A stretch of 64,000 nt of DNA, taken from the IMG/VR virus record IMGVR_UViG_3300042387_002331. One strand, given 5' to 3'. This stretch comes from a virus. How positions within the stretch are numbered: the first letter of the stretch is position 1; each line of letters opens with the position of its first letter. A program made the translations under genes and the position numbers. Positions 10,089-53,797 of this stretch are shown in pieces. The notes beneath the pieces are model-generated. The model was not told where the DNA came from. It saw only the letters and a program-made list of their open reading frames with translations, and did not search any database.

Positions 10089-11693
10089 ATGAGCACTTTA
10101 AAAGTTAATAATATTGAACCTACTTTAGGTGATAATATTAGATTAACAGGAAATGTAACTATCATTACACCTGCCGGAAAAGAAATAGAATTTAATGATT
10201 CTAACACCACATTTAGTGGTTCTATTACTCTTACAGGATCTTTAGATACTGATAAAGGAGATGTTTTAATCAACGAAGGAAATTTAATTTTAAAATCTGG
10301 ATCTTTACTTATTGGTTCAGGAAGCTTAAACCAACAATCAACCACAGGATCAACTTCCGCTTCATATTGGAGTATCACCAGTTCAATAACAGTTACAGGT
10401 TCAGAAGGATCTGATTGGACTGTAGAAGTTGAAGGAGATACAACAGTTACAGGTTCATTTGGAGTATTAGGTGATACTGATTTTACAGGTGATGTAACTA
10501 TTAGTGGATGTTTAGATATTAATTGCTATAACGACGAAGGTAACCCTATTTTCTGGGCAATTGATGGTCGTACAACTCCATCCCCAGCTGGATTTGAATA
10601 TGTTTCTATTAACTTTAGTACATATGGAGATTTAACAGCAGGAATTGCTGCTGCAGCTGCCTCTTCAAACAACGTATGCTACATTTATGATCCTGCTACT
10701 GGAGTATATGCCCCTTATGGATACTCAGGAACAGATTTTGATGGTGTAGTTACATACATTTCAGCTTCTGGTCCTGAAATTGCTACAGGAACATTAGTTC
10801 AAATAGGATTCCCAACACCTATCCCAGGTGCTACCCCAATCTACCCAATTGGAACCGGATCTTTAACACCAGTTGCTTCTTTCTGTTGTGATGGAATTAC
10901 ATTATACAGTGATGTAACAATTTCAGGTGGATTAGATGTATATGGTCCTACAAATTTACATGATGGGCTGATTGTAACAGGATGTATTGAAATGTATTGT
11001 CCTGGAGATGAAGCAACATCATGGTATGGATATGAAGGGTCAGTTAGATTTTCAAAACCATCTGCTAGTGTATTCCTTAACTACACTTGGTTAGATCCTT
11101 CTTATGGAGATGTTAGAACAGCCATTTCAGCATCTGCTGCTGCAAATGGAGGAACACTTCAATTATACAATACAATAACAGGAACTACTCAAACAGTAAA
11201 CTATATAAGTTCAACATGGACTCAAACACTTACTATTATTGAGTATTCAACCCCAACACTTACAGCATATAGCCCAATGCCTGTAATTCATATTGGAAAC
11301 CAAACCCCAGATTTGCAACCTGATGGTGCAGATATTTTAATGGGATCTGGTTCAGCTACTCCAACTCAAACTGCAACTTTCTGTTGTGATGGAAACGTAT
11401 TATACGGAGACACAACATTTACAGGATCAGTTTCAATTACAGGTTCAACCTCTACAACAGGTTCAGTTACAGTAACAGGACCTACAGAAATTACAGGTTC
11501 AGTAGATATTAAAGGTGATGGAAAAATTTCAGGATCTCTTGAAGTATCTGGAGGGCTTGCTTTACCTAAAGTATTAGATGGCCCACCAGCATATACTGGT
11601 AAAAAAGGTGAAATGGTATTTGGAGTTGATGGTAGTAACTATTTCTTTTATGTTTATTTAGATGGTGCTTGGAAATCAGGATCATTAGCATAA
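10089..11693 (+). CDS. Virion structural (fibre-like) protein with TGS repeats and an internal duplication
   Basis: MSTLKVNNIEP start, many (V/I)TGS repeats, two C..C...FCCDG units; class C promoter. Confidence 0.6.
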   Translation: MSTLKVNNIEPTLGDNIRLTGNVTIITPAGKEIEFNDSNTTFSGSITLTGSLDTDKGDVLINEGNLILKSGSLLIGSGSLNQQSTTGSTSASYWSITSSITVTGSEGSDWTVEVEGDTTVTGSFGVLGDTDFTGDVTISGCLDINCYNDEGNPIFWAIDGRTTPSPAGFEYVSINFSTYGDLTAGIAAAAASSNNVCYIYDPATGVYAPYGYSGTDFDGVVTYISASGPEIATGTLVQIGFPTPIPGATPIYPIGTGSLTPVASFCCDGITLYSDVTISGGLDVYGPTNLHDGLIVTGCIEMYCPGDEATSWYGYEGSVRFSKPSASVFLNYTWLDPSYGDVRTAISASAAANGGTLQLYNTITGTTQTVNYISSTWTQTLTIIEYSTPTLTAYSPMPVIHIGNQTPDLQPDGADILMGSGSATPTQTATFCCDGNVLYGDTTFTGSVSITGSTSTTGSVTVTGPTEITGSVDIKGDGKISGSLEVSGGLALPKVLDGPPAYTGKKGEMVFGVDGSNYFFYVYLDGAWKSGSLA

Positions 11694-11770
11694 AAAAATC
11701 CAACATTTTTAAAAAATAATTTGGCCCCTTAAAGGGGCCTTATTACATTTATATAAAATAATTAAGTTAT

Positions 11771-12469
11771 ATGTCAGAAAACACACGTAGAAAAAAACAC
11801 ACAGAACTAGAATGTGTACAAGTAGGTTTTGCAAATGGAGTTGCACCTGGTTTTCCCCTTACTGAGAAAGAAAAATGGGATATGGTTGATAAAGCAGAAG
11901 CTGCTTACGGCCAATTCCTAGATGCTTTAGGATGTGATTGGCGAAACGACCCAAATTCATCAGAAACACCTCGTCGAGTAGCTAAAGCTTATGTATTTGA
12001 CTTATGGGCAGGTAGATATACTGCAATGTCAGATATTACTTCATTTCCATCAGACGGATACGATGGCATTGTAATTGAGCGAAATATCCCAGTTACTTCA
12101 ATGTGTTCACACCACCACCAAACAATTGGAGGAGTAGTTCATATTGGCTATGTAGTTGGAGAAGGTGGACGAGTAATTGGTTTATCTAAACTAAACCGCA
12201 TTGTAGAATTATTTGGCCGTAGAGGAGCAATTCAAGAACAGTTAACCTCAGCAGTCCACAATGCAGTAAACAAAGTATGTGAAGGAAATAGAGGTATTAT
12301 CGTTACAGTAGTAGCAACTCACAATTGCGTATCTTGTAGAGGAGTAAAACATCAAGGTGCTTCTATGGTTACTACCAAAGCATCAGGTGTGTTTATTGAA
12401 AACGATAACCAAGCACGTAAGGAATTTTTCGATAGTATTAAAATTAATAATGGTGGACACCAAATTTAA
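11771..12469 (+). CDS. folE: GTP cyclohydrolase I
   Basis: ETPRRVAK, SMCSHH, IGLSKLNR, IQEQLT, HNCVSCRGV. Confidence 0.95.
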   Translation: MSENTRRKKHTELECVQVGFANGVAPGFPLTEKEKWDMVDKAEAAYGQFLDALGCDWRNDPNSSETPRRVAKAYVFDLWAGRYTAMSDITSFPSDGYDGIVIERNIPVTSMCSHHHQTIGGVVHIGYVVGEGGRVIGLSKLNRIVELFGRRGAIQEQLTSAVHNAVNKVCEGNRGIIVTVVATHNCVSCRGVKHQGASMVTTKASGVFIENDNQARKEFFDSIKINNGGHQI

Positions 12470-12474
12470 AAGTT

Positions 12475-12702
12475 ATGGACAAAACACAATTACTCTATGA
12501 GGCTTTAGAGTCAAAATATCTAGCCCAAATTGCTGAAGCAAAAGCAACACTAGCAATCTATTTTACAAGTTCAGTTGGTATTGGAGAACACCCACAACAC
12601 CTTGAAGAAATGGACAAATTTGTAGCCCAATTAGCTGAAGCTGAAGATAAACTTGAAACCCTTCAAGCATTGAAATTAATTGACCCTTCAACTCCATTTT
12701 AA
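12475..12702 (+). CDS. Small phage hypothetical protein
   Basis: VGIGEHP motif. Confidence 0.65.
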   Translation: MDKTQLLYEALESKYLAQIAEAKATLAIYFTSSVGIGEHPQHLEEMDKFVAQLAEAEDKLETLQALKLIDPSTPF

Positions 12703-12703
12703 T

Positions 12704-12865
12704 ATGACAGAGTTAGAACAAAAACAAGAAGAATTAATTGATCTTCTTAAAGGCCAAGTAATCGATCTTTCAATAATGTCTAAAATTGAACTTGGAGATG
12801 ATGTAATTCAAGAATGGAATAAGTTAAATAAAGAAATTCAAAACATAAAAGAAAATCATGGATAG
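12704..12865 (+). CDS. Hypothetical protein
   Basis: Coupled ORF. Confidence 0.5.
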   Translation: MTELEQKQEELIDLLKGQVIDLSIMSKIELGDDVIQEWNKLNKEIQNIKENHG

Positions 12866-13523
12866 AAAAGAAATTCAAGAAAAATTCAATATCCCAGACA
12901 ATACTATTTGTTTTTTTGATAATGAAAAACCTTTAGTAGAGTTCCGTGAAAATGGAGATATTGTTATTAAAGGAGAAGTAGTTAAAAATGATCCTGAAGT
13001 AGTAGAGGGAATGAGTGTAATTGCTCAAAACCTAAGTTACCCCGAAATAGGGAAAGATTTTTTACCTTTTGTCGATGAAGTTGAAGAGTTTAATGCAATT
13101 ATGGGAAAGCCCAATAATTATACCCCGGTCATTCCCGCTGAGAAGGAATGGATGTTTGTCTATAACTTTATTTTGGAAGAACTAGAAGAATATAAACATG
13201 CATGTGAACAAGGAGACATTGTTGAAGTTCTTGATGCTCTATGTGACATTGCCTACGTTTCCCTTGGAAACGGAACTATGTTGCATGGTCTTAAGGATAA
13301 ATTATGGCCCGCATATCAAGAAGTACAAGCGTCAAATCTTAGCAAAGCTTGCTTTAGTGAAGAAGAGGCACAAGAAACCGTTAGAGTTCGCTCCGAAGAG
13401 CAAAAGGAACCGTGTCACTATGAAAAGGTTGGTAAATATTTTATCGTCTATAGAACACGTGATCGCAAAGTAATGAAAAACATTAACTATTTTAGACCTG
13501 ATTTAACACAATTTTTTAAATAA
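12858..13523 (+). CDS. MazG-like all-alpha NTP pyrophosphohydrolase
   Basis: EELEEY...EVLDALCDIAYV...EVQASNLSK, KVMK..Y..PDL. Confidence 0.8.
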   Translation: MDRKEIQEKFNIPDNTICFFDNEKPLVEFRENGDIVIKGEVVKNDPEVVEGMSVIAQNLSYPEIGKDFLPFVDEVEEFNAIMGKPNNYTPVIPAEKEWMFVYNFILEELEEYKHACEQGDIVEVLDALCDIAYVSLGNGTMLHGLKDKLWPAYQEVQASNLSKACFSEEEAQETVRVRSEEQKEPCHYEKVGKYFIVYRTRDRKVMKNINYFRPDLTQFFK

Positions 13524-40891: not shown

Positions 40892-40964
40892 GCCTTTGTA
40901 GCTCAACAGGTAGAGCAATTGATTTGTAATCAATAGGTTGCAGGTTCGATTCCTGTCAAAGGCT
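40892..40964 (+). tRNA. tRNA-Thr(TGT)
   Basis: Cloverleaf GCCTTTG/CAAAGGC, anticodon loop TTTGTAA, TTCGATT. Confidence 0.92.
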
Positions 40965-41007
40965 CTAAACTTATAATATCGTTTGGATATTTATAATGGG
41001 GAGGTTT

Positions 41008-41090
41008 GCTTGGGTGGTGGAATGGTAGACACGACAGACTTAAGATCTGTTGGCCATGTGGCTGTGCGGGTTCAAGTCCCGCCCCGAGTA
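41008..41090 (+). tRNA. tRNA-Leu(TAA)
   Basis: ACAGA CTTAAGA TCTGT, long variable arm. Confidence 0.92.
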
Positions 41091-41094
41091 CAAT

Positions 41095-41168
41095 AGTCCT
41101 GTAGCTCAGTTGGATAGAGCAACTCACTTCTAATGAGTAGGTCATAGGTTCGACTCCTATCAGGGCTA
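41095..41168 (+). tRNA. tRNA-Arg(TCT)
   Basis: ACTCA CTTCTAA TGAGT. Confidence 0.92.
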
Positions 41169-41182
41169 CAAAAAAATAATTT

Positions 41183-41254
41183 GGTCCCATCGTCTATCGG
41201 TTAGGACGCCAGGTTTTCATCCTGGAAAGCGGGGTTCGATTCCCCGTGGGACTA
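41183..41254 (+). tRNA. tRNA-Glu(TTC)
   Basis: CCAGG TTTTCAT CCTGG. Confidence 0.92.
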
Positions 41255-41258
41255 CAAA

Positions 41259-41332
41259 GGTGTGTTAGTTCAGTTGGTTAGAATACCTGCCTGTCACGCA
41301 GGGGGTCGTGGGTTCGAGTCCCATACACACCG
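41259..41332 (+). tRNA. tRNA-Asp(GTC)
   Basis: CCTGC CTGTCAC GCAGG. Confidence 0.92.
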
Positions 41333-41339
41333 CTAAAAA

Positions 41340-41507
41340 ATGAAGATGGAAGACAAAAATAAAACATTGAAAATTAAAACAGAGATTAATTCTTTGGAGA
41401 GTGTTTTAAAAAAACTAGAGGAAAAGTATAAGACATTTCCTAATAAACATCTTAGTGATGTGATTGTCCATTTAGCAATGGCAATTGACAGCGCTAAACA
41501 AATATAA
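41340..41507 (+). CDS. Small hypothetical protein within the tRNA cluster (not in ORF track)
   Basis: ATG..TAA, 55 codons between tRNA-Asp and tRNA-Ser. Confidence 0.4.
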
Positions 41508-41509
41508 AC

Positions 41510-41594
41510 GGAGAGTTGGCAGAGTGGTCGATTGCGGCGGTCTTGAAAACCGTTGAACCGAAAGGTTCCGGGAGTTCGAATCTCTCACTCTCCG
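41510..41594 (+). tRNA. tRNA-Ser(TGA)
   Basis: GCGGT CTTGAAA ACCGT, long variable arm. Confidence 0.92.
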
Positions 41595-41635
41595 CTTTTT
41601 TATAAACAAACGAGTTTATAATATGTATAAGAAAT

Positions 41636-41709
41636 GGGGGATTAGCTCAGCTGGCTAGAGCACCTGCCTTGCACGCAGGGGGTCAACGGTTCGACTCCGT
41701 TATCCTCCA
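41636..41709 (+). tRNA. tRNA-Ala(TGC)
   Basis: CCTGC CTTGCAC GCAGG. Confidence 0.92.
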
Positions 41710-41727
41710 CTAAAATTTCTTAACAGT

Positions 41728-41856
41728 ACCTCGACGCATCCCATTAGATCTGCGCACCCGCTGAGGTCAATTTTGGTTACAGTGAATAGCCCAAGGCATA
41801 AGCAGTAACAACCCCAAACAAGACTACCTGATCAATAGACACTGTTTGGGTTTTTT
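41728..41856 (+). ncRNA. Unassigned structured RNA segment between tRNA-Ala and tRNA-Gln
   Basis: Three stems (acctc/gaggt, gttac/gtaac, cccaaaca/tgtttggg); GC-rich; no ORF. Confidence 0.35.
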
Positions 41857-41860
41857 ATCC

Positions 41861-41933
41861 TGTCCTATGGTGTAATTGGCAACACGTCTGATTTTGGTTC
41901 AGAAGAGTCGAGGTTCGAGCCCTTGTGGGACAA
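41861..41933 (+). tRNA. tRNA-Gln(TTG)
   Basis: TCTGA TTTTGGT TCAGA. Confidence 0.9.
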
Positions 41934-41970
41934 CAACGTAGAAGTTCTTTGACATAAATCATTAAAAATC

Positions 41971-48004: not shown

Positions 48005-48058
48005 AGGAATAGTTTTTATAAAAGAACTTTCGTATATTCCAAGTAAATAAAAAAGAAA

Positions 48059-52439: not shown

Positions 52440-52502
52440 AAAAGCTTTCGTATATTGAAAGTAAGAAAAAAGAAAAGAAAGTTAAATTAAAAAAAAGTAG
52501 TT

Positions 52503-53312
52503 ATGTTAGATTTAAGCCAAGACAGTTTTTTGACAATGAGTGAAGTTAGACAACGCGCTAAGTCAATTTTTACAGAAACAGCCGCTCCAACGGTTTCAGA
52601 CAAATTTACCCACATTCCAACCAATCGAGTGATTGAAGATATGGAACAATTAGGATGGGGTGTAGTTGATGCCAAAGAGGTAAAAGCTAGAAAAGAAGGA
52701 ACAAAAGGATTCCAAAAACACTTAGTTGTATTCCGCAACCCAGATGTAGTAATTAATGGTTCTGACGGTGATACAGTATTTCCACAAATCCTATTAACAA
52801 ATTCAAACGATGGAAAAAATGCGTTTACGTTTACAGCGGGTTTATTCCGTATGGTATGTGAAAATGGTTTGGTTATTTCAACTGAGCAGTTCAATGATGT
52901 AAAAATGCGTCACATGGGTTACACATTTGAGGAATTGCAAGTGCAAATTCGTGAAATGGTTGAGCAGTTGCCTTTGACAGTTGAGTCAATGAACAAAATG
53001 AAAGAAATTAAGTTGGACGAGGAACAAGCAAAAGAGCTTGCTAAAAAAGCATTGACAACTCGTTTCACAGAAGATCAAGTTGAAGCTATGAACATTAACC
53101 TAGATGAACTACTTGCACCAACACGTAAAGAAGATGAAGGTAGTGATTTATGGTCAGTATTTAACGTGATTCAAGAAAAGATATTAGATGGTAGTTTTTC
53201 ATACATGACAGGTGCTAAAATTAGAAAAGCACGTAAAGTGAAGAATTTCAAACAAGACATGGAAATCAACCAAAAATTATTTGCAATGGCAGCTGAATTT
53301 ATAGCTGCCTAA
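52503..53312 (+). CDS. DUF932/DUF945-family protein (second paralog)
   Basis: SDKFTHIPT, NSNDG, AGLFRMVCENG, RH.G, DLWSVFNVIQE. Confidence 0.85.
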   Translation: MLDLSQDSFLTMSEVRQRAKSIFTETAAPTVSDKFTHIPTNRVIEDMEQLGWGVVDAKEVKARKEGTKGFQKHLVVFRNPDVVINGSDGDTVFPQILLTNSNDGKNAFTFTAGLFRMVCENGLVISTEQFNDVKMRHMGYTFEELQVQIREMVEQLPLTVESMNKMKEIKLDEEQAKELAKKALTTRFTEDQVEAMNINLDELLAPTRKEDEGSDLWSVFNVIQEKILDGSFSYMTGAKIRKARKVKNFKQDMEINQKLFAMAAEFIAA

Positions 53313-53378
53313 GCAAAAAATCGTCGCAAGTAGAACCGACGGCCGCGTAAAGGTGCCGCTACTATAAAATTCGGGGTA

Positions 53379-53496
53379 AGTCAGGTGGCGGAATGGTAGA
53401 CGCATTGGATGGTTATAGCACCAAGGGTAAAAAAGCACACTGCGTGTGGTCACTATAATGGCAGCCCAAATACAGGTTCAAATCCTGTCCTGACTT
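53379..53496 (+). ncRNA. tRNA-like RNA 1 (118 nt) with expanded anticodon/variable region
   Basis: Acceptor AGTCAGG/CCTGACT, D arm GCGGAATGGTAGACGC, T arm ACAGG TTCAAAT CCTGT. Confidence 0.7.
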
Positions 53497-53590
53497 CAAA
53501 GTGTTGTTCCCTTGAGAAAGGAATATAAGTAAACAGCAACTAATAACTTAAAAGATAGTTGCCAACACAGAGGATTTCTCATCCTCATAT

Positions 53591-53673
53591 AGTCAGGTGG
53601 TGTAATGTAACACGGTCCTAATTTAATATGGTGAATACCAGGGCTAGTGCAGGTTCGAGTCCTGCCCTGACTA
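53591..53673 (+). ncRNA. tRNA-like RNA 2 (83 nt) with ~20-nt anticodon loop
   Basis: Same acceptor AGTCAGG/CCTGACT, D arm GTGT/ACAC, T arm GCAGG TTCGAGT CCTGC. Confidence 0.7.
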
Positions 53674-53706: not shown

Positions 53707-53736
53707 CCTGCCTCACGAAAGTGGGGCAGGTTTTTC
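53707..53736 (+). terminator. Intrinsic terminator
   Basis: cctgcctcac gaaa gtggggcagg ttttt. Confidence 0.8.
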
Positions 53737-53797
53737 TAAAAAGGAATAGTTTGAGCAAAAGAAATTTCGTATATTGAAGTAAATTAAAGAGAGAACA

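Follow-up and report, generated by a model that had tools for sequence, protein, structure and literature searches.

Comparison with related sequences indicates that the two tRNA-like RNAs at 53379–53496 (RNA1) and 53591–53673 (RNA2) are real, selectively maintained, non-decoding tRNA-shaped RNA genes, and that they belong to two different conserved families, named type A and type E. Both RNAs contain the 7-bp acceptor, the D arm and the 5-bp T stem with its TTCRANY loop that are found in a canonical tRNA. In contrast to a canonical tRNA, in neither RNA does a 5-bp anticodon stem close a free 7-nt loop containing U33 and a purine at position 37, so that normal decoding is not expected of them. 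We consider it somewhat better than an even chance that they represent a natural 'tRNA scaffold', in which host RNase P and 3' enzymes would excise the RNAs and their structured neighbours, and in which the insert would be the working part.

Genomic setting and transcription unit

The window, which is the whole stretch of 64,000 nt analysed here, comes from an IMG/VR virus record of 124 kb with a completeness of ~77%. Judged by a neighbouring protein (44% identity), the closest cultured relative is a Flavobacterium myophage of 160 kb. Viral and metagenome contigs are the source of the relatives, and the binned ones are found mostly in freshwater Bacteroidota bins. Eight ordinary tRNAs of this uncultured freshwater phage are located at 40892–41934 of the window, and the RNA locus at 53379–53673 lies far from this normal tRNA cluster, as an earlier note on this DNA had stated.

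A motif GGA-N22-YGTATAT is present in 28 copies on the + strand between positions 48006 and 63928 of the window, versus 0.22 copies expected by chance. It appears to be an early-promoter class which divides this region into small cassettes. The likely promoter of the unit studied here is a CGTATAT box at 52449–52455 with an upstream GGA at non-standard spacing. It is followed, all on the + strand, by a DUF932 protein gene at 52503–53312 (Pfam PF06067, E 2e-32), a 58-nt leader RNA at 53321–53378, called 'motif X', which ends exactly at the RNA1 5' end, then RNA1, a structured inter-element RNA of 94 nt at 53497–53590, and RNA2. An intrinsic terminator at 53707–53730 closes the unit; it consists of a 10-bp stem with 7 G-C pairs followed by TTTTT, in agreement with the strong terminator that had been noticed after the RNAs. 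The promoter motif of the next gene cassette, an exact GGA-N22-CGTATAT match, is located at 53743–53774 on the + strand, and the RNA locus ends before it. From the DUF932 promoter box to position 53743 no copy of GGA-N22-YGTATAT is found. Since no promoter motif lies between the DUF932 gene and the terminator, the gene, the leader, RNA1, the 94-nt RNA, RNA2 and the terminator form one unit, and the RNA locus is probably the 3' part of the DUF932 transcript.

The DUF932 gene is found upstream of a type A RNA, on the same strand, in 25 of 46 loci, which were collected without using the protein. Type A RNAs are observed a few hundred bases 3' of the DUF932 gene even at 30–33% protein identity (L106 and L125). 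For DUF932 itself there is no solved relative, and its AlphaFold model (mean pLDDT 69.5) gives no PDB fold match at E≤0.001.

The leader RNA is 96–100% identical in the loci L002, L017, L018 and L020, whose DUF932 proteins are 70–99% identical, and a diverged copy is present in L042/L045. In every locus where it is found, it adjoins a tRNA-like element at that element's first base. If RNase P cut at RNA1, the leader would become the 3' end of the DUF932 mRNA, an arrangement resembling the MALAT1 triple helix with mascRNA; that the leader might protect this end is our conjecture. At MALAT1 (mascRNA) and MEN-beta, an RNase P cut frees a small RNA and leaves a structured upstream 3' end (PMC8457004). 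The two systems are alike in that a longer transcript has a tRNA-like RNA as its 3' end, here with a conserved leader adjoining RNA1; however, mascRNA belongs to a eukaryotic, nuclear system in which each transcript carries a single element and no insert is conserved.

The 94-nt inter-element RNA has a fold z-score of -3.99 and contains two complementary loops, UGAGAAA and UUUCUCA. It forms a conserved family of its own with a 5' block AAAGTGTTGTTCCCTTGAGAAAGGAAT and a 3' block CAACACAGAGGAYTTCTCAWCCTCA. The blocks are found in 12 other loci, and in both loci inspected (L060 and L078) this RNA lies between ordinary tRNAs. Its first base, 53497, is also the conserved C74 of the RNA1 trailer. 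The conservation of the inter-element RNA itself, also between real tRNAs, and the fixed position of the leader would both suit another reading, in which the tRNA-like folds only mark the cutting sites of RNase P and of 3' processing, so that the DUF932 mRNA is trimmed and the flanking RNAs are freed, while the inserts are functionless. We consider this reading rather unlikely because of the conservation of the inserts described below.

RNA1 and the type A family

The acceptor of RNA1 is formed by pairing of 53379–53385 with 53489–53495 (AGTCAGG/CCTGACT), and 68 nt lie between its Leu-type D arm (53388–53403) and its T arm (53472–53488). This middle part starts with a covarying inner stem of 4 bp (53405–53408 with 53421–53424) carrying a 12-nt loop (53409–53420), and further contains a GGG/CCC helix (53425–53427 with 53465–53467) and a variable hairpin (53436–53448). 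The discriminator is a U at 53496. RNA1 matches the Rfam tRNA model RF00005 over model positions 1–71 with 40.8 bits (E 3e-7, gathering score 29), with one large insertion placed at the anticodon loop. Two folds had been proposed earlier for the ~68 nt between the D and T arms, and both exist. The minimum-free-energy fold is a cloverleaf with a bulged stem, the loop GTTATAG and then a 47-nt branched arm; the alternative contains a TTATAG/CTATAA pairing.

This pairing is a pseudoknot on the + strand between TTATAG at 53413–53418, in the anticodon-like loop, and CTATAA at 53453–53458, where a 'codon' AUA stands opposite the UAU of the loop; 99.5% of the alignment cells are paired in this helix. 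A change from G-C to A-U is observed in 7 of the 33 aligned type A sequences, and the metagenome matches listed further include two wobble variants (G-U and U-G) and a single mismatch at the helix end. With one double change plus wobble variants, the sequence support for the UUAUAG/CUAUAA helix is real but thin. The helix would lock the only anticodon-like triplet of RNA1, UAU, onto the internal AUA. RNA1 is thus left without a free anticodon loop, having a 4-bp stem and a 12-nt loop whose UUAUAG is paired downstream.

A motif taken from the RNA1 insert is found in 46 stretches in IMG/VR, and the type A family comprises at least 78 distinct contexts on viral and metagenome contigs. A later viral scan keyed on the 3' part and a metagenome scan gave mostly coding false positives plus a few new members. 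Alignment A1 contains 33 distinct type A sequences, RNA1 and 32 others. In the named structure 95.8% of its cells are paired, versus 32–50% when the partners are slid. Double changes are observed at 11 pairs in all, comprising 3 pairs of the acceptor, all 4 of the inner stem, 3 of the T stem and 1 of the pseudoknot. The type A insert is defined by the loop ATGGTTATARCA followed by the tract GGGTAAAAAA, a variable hairpin and the block GGTCACTATAATGGCAGCCC, and RNA1 fits this definition. The 12-nt loop, the tract and the block are almost invariant in the 33 sequences; the block was not included in the search key. In several type A sublineages an extra hairpin is found in the D loop. These hairpins are unrelated between lineages and share the same insertion point (L070:4339-4479, L083:9264-9408, L090:3292-3431), which suggests that the chassis tolerates a second cargo site.

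The inserts of type A, and those of type E described below, are far better conserved than the surrounding stems and contain covarying helices. In addition, the type A insert is almost never found outside the chassis: among the matches listed, it lies within a complete tRNA chassis in 72 of the 73 evaluable distinct contexts. Processing marks with functionless inserts therefore fail to explain these inserts, and a scaffold that carries a working insert remains our preferred reading.

The type A body is of the leucine-tRNA type, in which U8, A14, G18G19 and U54-U55-C56 are kept and A73 is found in 65 of the 72 members scored among the matches listed. The 5' part of RNA1 matches annotated phage tRNA-Leu genes at ~90%, and its D loop is identical to that of the same phage's tRNA-Leu. 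Among 50,697 deposited phage records no full-length relative of the RNAs is found; only the 5' part matches, to tRNA-Leu. Such bodies raise the question of charging: Leu-type members could be leucylated by host LeuRS as non-decoding tRNAs, and would then act as an amino-acid donor or titrate LeuRS and EF-Tu. The known determinants of LeuRS are A73, U8-A14, G18-U55 and G19-C56, and the whole anticodon arm is dispensable for leucylation (PMC2377443). Bacterial LeuRS needs A73 and the elbow and not the anticodon arm, which makes it chemically plausible that Leu-type members are leucylated. That A73 and C74 are so strongly conserved also suggests that the 3' end matters; however, A73 and C74 favour RNase P recognition as well. 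RNA1 itself has U73, the sole U among the 72 type A members scored in the matches listed, and an A73U change lowers leucylation 45-fold in Aquifex (PMC2377443). Taken as the role of these RNAs, charging appears distinctly improbable.

RNA2, the type E family and the shared chassis

RNA2 has the same AGTCAGG/CCTGACT acceptor as RNA1, and the T arms of the two are nearly alike. Its D arm (53600–53613) is of the Gln type, and its T arm is at 53649–53665. Between them, the stem GTCCT/AGGGC (53615–53619 with 53640–53644) carries a 20-nt loop (53620–53639) which begins with AA and stands at the anticodon position, where a 7-nt loop with U33 would be expected in a tRNA. The D loop is AATGTA, without GG, and the discriminator A at 53673 is followed by C74 at 53674. 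RNA2 matches RF00005 over model positions 1–71 with 44.5 bits (E 3e-8, gathering score 29), with a single large insertion at the anticodon loop, and its minimum-free-energy fold is a cloverleaf. The description of the stem, the 20-nt loop and the missing GG in the earlier note is confirmed, and so are the common acceptor and the D and T arms of the two RNAs, which match the tRNA model end to end. With their matches above the RF00005 threshold and their D-arm and D-loop matches, the two RNAs resemble phage and bacterial tRNA-Leu and tRNA-Gln, and the bodies of RNA1 and RNA2 are of different ancestry, Leu-type and Gln-type, respectively. An inner helix AUUUA/UGAAU in the minimum-free-energy fold of RNA2 is unsupported, since variation within the family breaks it.

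The type E family is defined by the D arm GGTGTAA..TAACAC, the 5' stem strand G(G/T)TCCT and the 20-nt loop AATTTAATATGGTGNATRCC, and RNA2 fits this definition. The D arm and the 5' stem strand served as the search key with the loop left free, and alignment A4 contains 13 distinct sequences, RNA2 and 12 others. Though excluded from the key, 17 of the 20 loop positions are unchanging in the 13 sequences. Covariation is observed at 7 of 7 acceptor pairs and at 4 T-stem pairs, and the acceptors include AGTCAGG, AGCAAGG, GGCCTTA, AACCCTA and AGCTCTA. The type E D arm is identical at 17 of 18 positions to that of the same phage's tRNA-Gln. The anticodon determinants of GlnRS are absent from RNA2, which counts against its charging. 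G18G19 is missing in 5 of the 13 members, and together with the U73 of RNA1 this indicates that some tRNA features are relaxed. No protein gene is consistently linked to type E; one 79-aa protein of unknown family recurs in 4 loci. An identity of the stretch GGUGAAUAC in the RNA2 loop to 16S rRNA around position 1370 was considered and rejected, as the middle base varies among A, U and C within type E.

The inserts of both RNAs sit at the anticodon loop, the usual site of tRNA introns, and RNA1 can show a 7-nt loop with U33, UAU and A37, so that intron-containing genes, from which splicing would restore ordinary tRNAs, have to be considered. However, the inserts are 13 nt and ~50 nt long and no intron family is found at E≤10. 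Group I introns are several times longer. For RNA2 no bulge-helix-bulge (3-4-3) can be drawn, and no combination of a prefix and a suffix of its loop gives a 7-nt loop with U33. Conservation is also higher in the sequence of the inserts than in the exon stems. Furthermore, splicing endonuclease (PF01974) and RtcB (PF01139) are absent from the 124-kb record (77% complete), as are a CCA-adding enzyme and TGT/DpdA. With such short inserts, no bulge-helix-bulge, no U33-restoring deletion, no group I intron and no splicing enzyme, splicing is very unlikely, and the earlier concern that it might yield ordinary tRNAs is not borne out.

Decay of tRNA pseudogenes, or remnants of phage attachment sites, could be suspected from the fact that ARAGORN assigns no anticodon, as had been expected with an undetermined or pseudo call; it reports only RNA2, as tRNA-???, and leaves RNA1 uncalled. 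One degenerate type A copy is also found, in locus L119. On the other side, compensatory changes keep every helix across dozens of phages, several copies occur per genome, and no host tRNA has the same 3' half, which makes decay extremely unlikely. The homologues collected in A1 (33 sequences) and A4 (13 sequences) show compensatory changes that keep the acceptor and T stems, and nearly invariant inserts, in support of the earlier inference of selected mimics rather than decay.

Both RNAs belong to a larger group of freshwater-phage RNAs, which we define here as the 'AGTCAGG tRNA-chassis' superfamily, an unpublished grouping with 109 distinct members in the loci examined. Its members share the acceptor AGTCAGG/CCTGACT or a covarying variant, a T arm (A/G)CAGG-TTCRANT-CCTG(T/C), A73 and C74, and an anticodon arm that is replaced. 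RNA1 and RNA2 show all of these features, except for the discriminator of RNA1. In the loci anchored by DUF932, 31 distinct elements have an acceptor with at most 2 changes from AGTCAGG, and all of them have a non-canonical middle. They carry more than 20 insert classes, mostly singletons, and range from 58 nt, with almost no insert, to 162 nt. The minimal members of the superfamily are 58–62 nt long and nearly insert-free, which indicates that the chassis by itself can be worth keeping. These minimal members and the singleton inserts would also be expected if the folds were only processing marks. In the relatives, all the RNA modules of the unit described above are located inside ordinary tRNA arrays. 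A phage-specific acceptor code was considered and rejected, as L150 has both an AGTCAGG element and a GGCCTTA element.

The 3' half of the chassis is found in only 28 stretches in 185,579 species genomes, all of them on metagenome-assembled contigs. No ordinary tRNA is among them, and a normal anticodon arm is missing from every element that can be delimited. Thus the chassis 3' half matches no ordinary cellular tRNA, no cellular tRNA appears to have been copied, and mimicry of a particular host tRNA was rejected as an explanation.

Further elements of this kind were observed beside the two families. In L146 (- strand, read 10226-13167), a stretch of 3 kb contains an array of six non-decoding chassis elements, each with a different insert. 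Cloverleaves of 72 nt on the AGTCAGG chassis, called 'type D', are found at L012:3905-3977, L013:3815-3886, L014:3904-3975 and L015:3905-3976; their loop CG[C/A/U]UUAA is tRNA-Lys-like, with G33 for the universal U33 and a variable wobble base. In the record studied here, a third tRNA-like element of 69 nt is located on the - strand ~1.6 kb past the right end of the window (G000:C1:33055-33123), with the acceptor GGTCATG/CATGACC, an A73-like end and no normal anticodon arm.

The locus has no significant match to Rfam families other than tRNA, and no known RNA family is found inside the inserts at E≤10. No tmRNA is found in the genome by the ARAGORN tmRNA search or by Rfam. In 20 related loci, only tRNA, tmRNA and freshwater-1 are observed among the Rfam families. 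Freshwater-1 (RF02979) occurs in the tRNA arrays of related phages (L048:4534-4595 and L056:4047-4108), in L048 with ordinary tRNAs on both sides. We found no published or database description of such RNA families; of tRNA-like matches, only a few are mentioned in a catalogue of candidate viral RNAs from 2023 (PMC10690425).

Maturation signals and possible roles

The flanks of the chassis elements match those of canonical phage tRNAs in the signals for maturation, namely U-1, the discriminator and C74. C74 is found in 107 of 109 chassis elements, in 31 of 33 type A and in 13 of 13 type E sequences, against a background C frequency of 0.16, and in the canonical tRNAs of this phage (8 of 8) and of its relatives (127 of 136). 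A CCA end is never encoded, and the two bases after C74 are never CA. A73 is present in 102 of the 109 distinct elements. U-1 is found in type A (23 of 33) and type E (12 of 13) sequences about as often as in canonical tRNAs (94 of 136). The ends of the chassis are thus selected as in tRNAs, which speaks for a cut by RNase P, trimming of the 3' end and completion of the CCA.

On this basis the following mechanism is proposed for the tRNA scaffold. The locus would be transcribed as the tail of the DUF932 early transcript. The tRNA top half, consisting of the 7-bp acceptor on the 5-bp T stem, the elbow, U-1, A73 and C74, would direct the host RNase P, 3' tRNA-processing and CCA-adding enzymes to cut out and finish each RNA. 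The products would be stable small RNAs, and the same cuts would free the leader RNA and the inter-element RNA. With excision giving stable RNAs, the tRNA body would serve as a scaffold for processing and stability, and the conserved insert as the working part, most likely by binding a host or phage factor. A man-made counterpart exists. In the engineered tRNA scaffold of Ponchon and Dardel, an arbitrary structured insert takes the place of the anticodon stem-loop while the acceptor, T and D arms stay in place, and the product is recognised by bacterial tRNA machinery, processed and protected in E. coli (PMC3753655). The phage RNAs differ in that they are natural, have conserved insert families and sometimes carry a second hairpin in the D loop.

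Among the roles suggested in the earlier note, that of a scaffold for processing or a carrier of cargo RNA agrees with the genomic layout and with maturation signals of the tRNA type. The decoy role gains no support and is kept here as a less likely possibility. As decoys or inhibitors, the RNAs would act on tRNA-attacking host enzymes, such as anticodon nucleases and acceptor-end-modifying toxins, by presenting an uncleavable or trapping substitute for the anticodon arm. The locus belongs to an early, fast-changing accessory region, and the great diversity of the inserts is what an arms race would predict. The RNA2 loop starts with AAUUUAA (AGUUUAA in L146), resembling a tRNA-Lys loop with purine 33, and the type D loop resembles it in the same way; the UAU loop of RNA1, locked onto its AUA strand, would also suit a decoy. 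However, the tRNA-Lys resemblance is short and AU-rich, and the chassis 3' half, matching no cellular tRNA, copies no particular host tRNA. A T4-type RNA ligase or RtcB, a possible sign of conflict over tRNA cleavage, is not present in the 124-kb record; for the ligase (T4 Rnl1) this has little weight, as the PF09511 search was also empty in every control genome. Decoys of this type seem to us fairly improbable.

A more speculative and rather unlikely extension of the scaffold is a modular toolkit of freshwater phages. Here a constant chassis would be matured by the host, CCA-tagged and, for Leu-type members, perhaps aminoacylated, and recombination at its conserved ends would bring in many different functional RNA domains. 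In type A, the codon-anticodon mimic would be locked onto itself, and type E would display a single-stranded loop. Each would neutralise or redirect a specific tRNA-binding factor of the host, such as an anticodon nuclease or some other enzyme of defence. If this were true, such elements would be an RNA counterpart of protein anti-defence genes.

Two other non-coding RNAs deserve comparison. Bacterial YrlA (Y RNA-like) likewise has a tRNA-like D/T elbow and does not decode. Its topology is the opposite, as the acceptor end of its tRNA-like module is the closed one and the module opens toward the stem that binds Ro. RNAC and RNAD of phage T4 (species 1 and 2) are small stable RNAs that end a phage tRNA cluster, and no function has been assigned to them (PMC3014915, PMC9697503). 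A hairpin resembling a T arm is present in RNAC, but the T4 RNAs do not share a chassis with swapped inserts. They were rejected as homologues, since the tRNA model is unmatched and the best match is tRNA-Sec with 17.5 bits to part of rnaC.

Phage tRNA genes are usually viewed as a codon supply or as an escape from tRNA-cleaving defences. The RNAs described here keep the features of tRNA recognition and maturation without codon reading, they are found in many phages, and their inserts are strongly selected. These observations point to a class of phage small RNAs that had gone unrecognised and would make use of host tRNA maturation, nature's version of the laboratory 'tRNA scaffold'. With lengths of 20 to 70 nt, their inserts are compact RNA domains that could serve as bait for their partners. 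As ARAGORN gives tRNA-??? or nothing, annotation pipelines are suggested to mislabel or miss such genes. The class may also shed light on the unexplained stable RNAs of T4.
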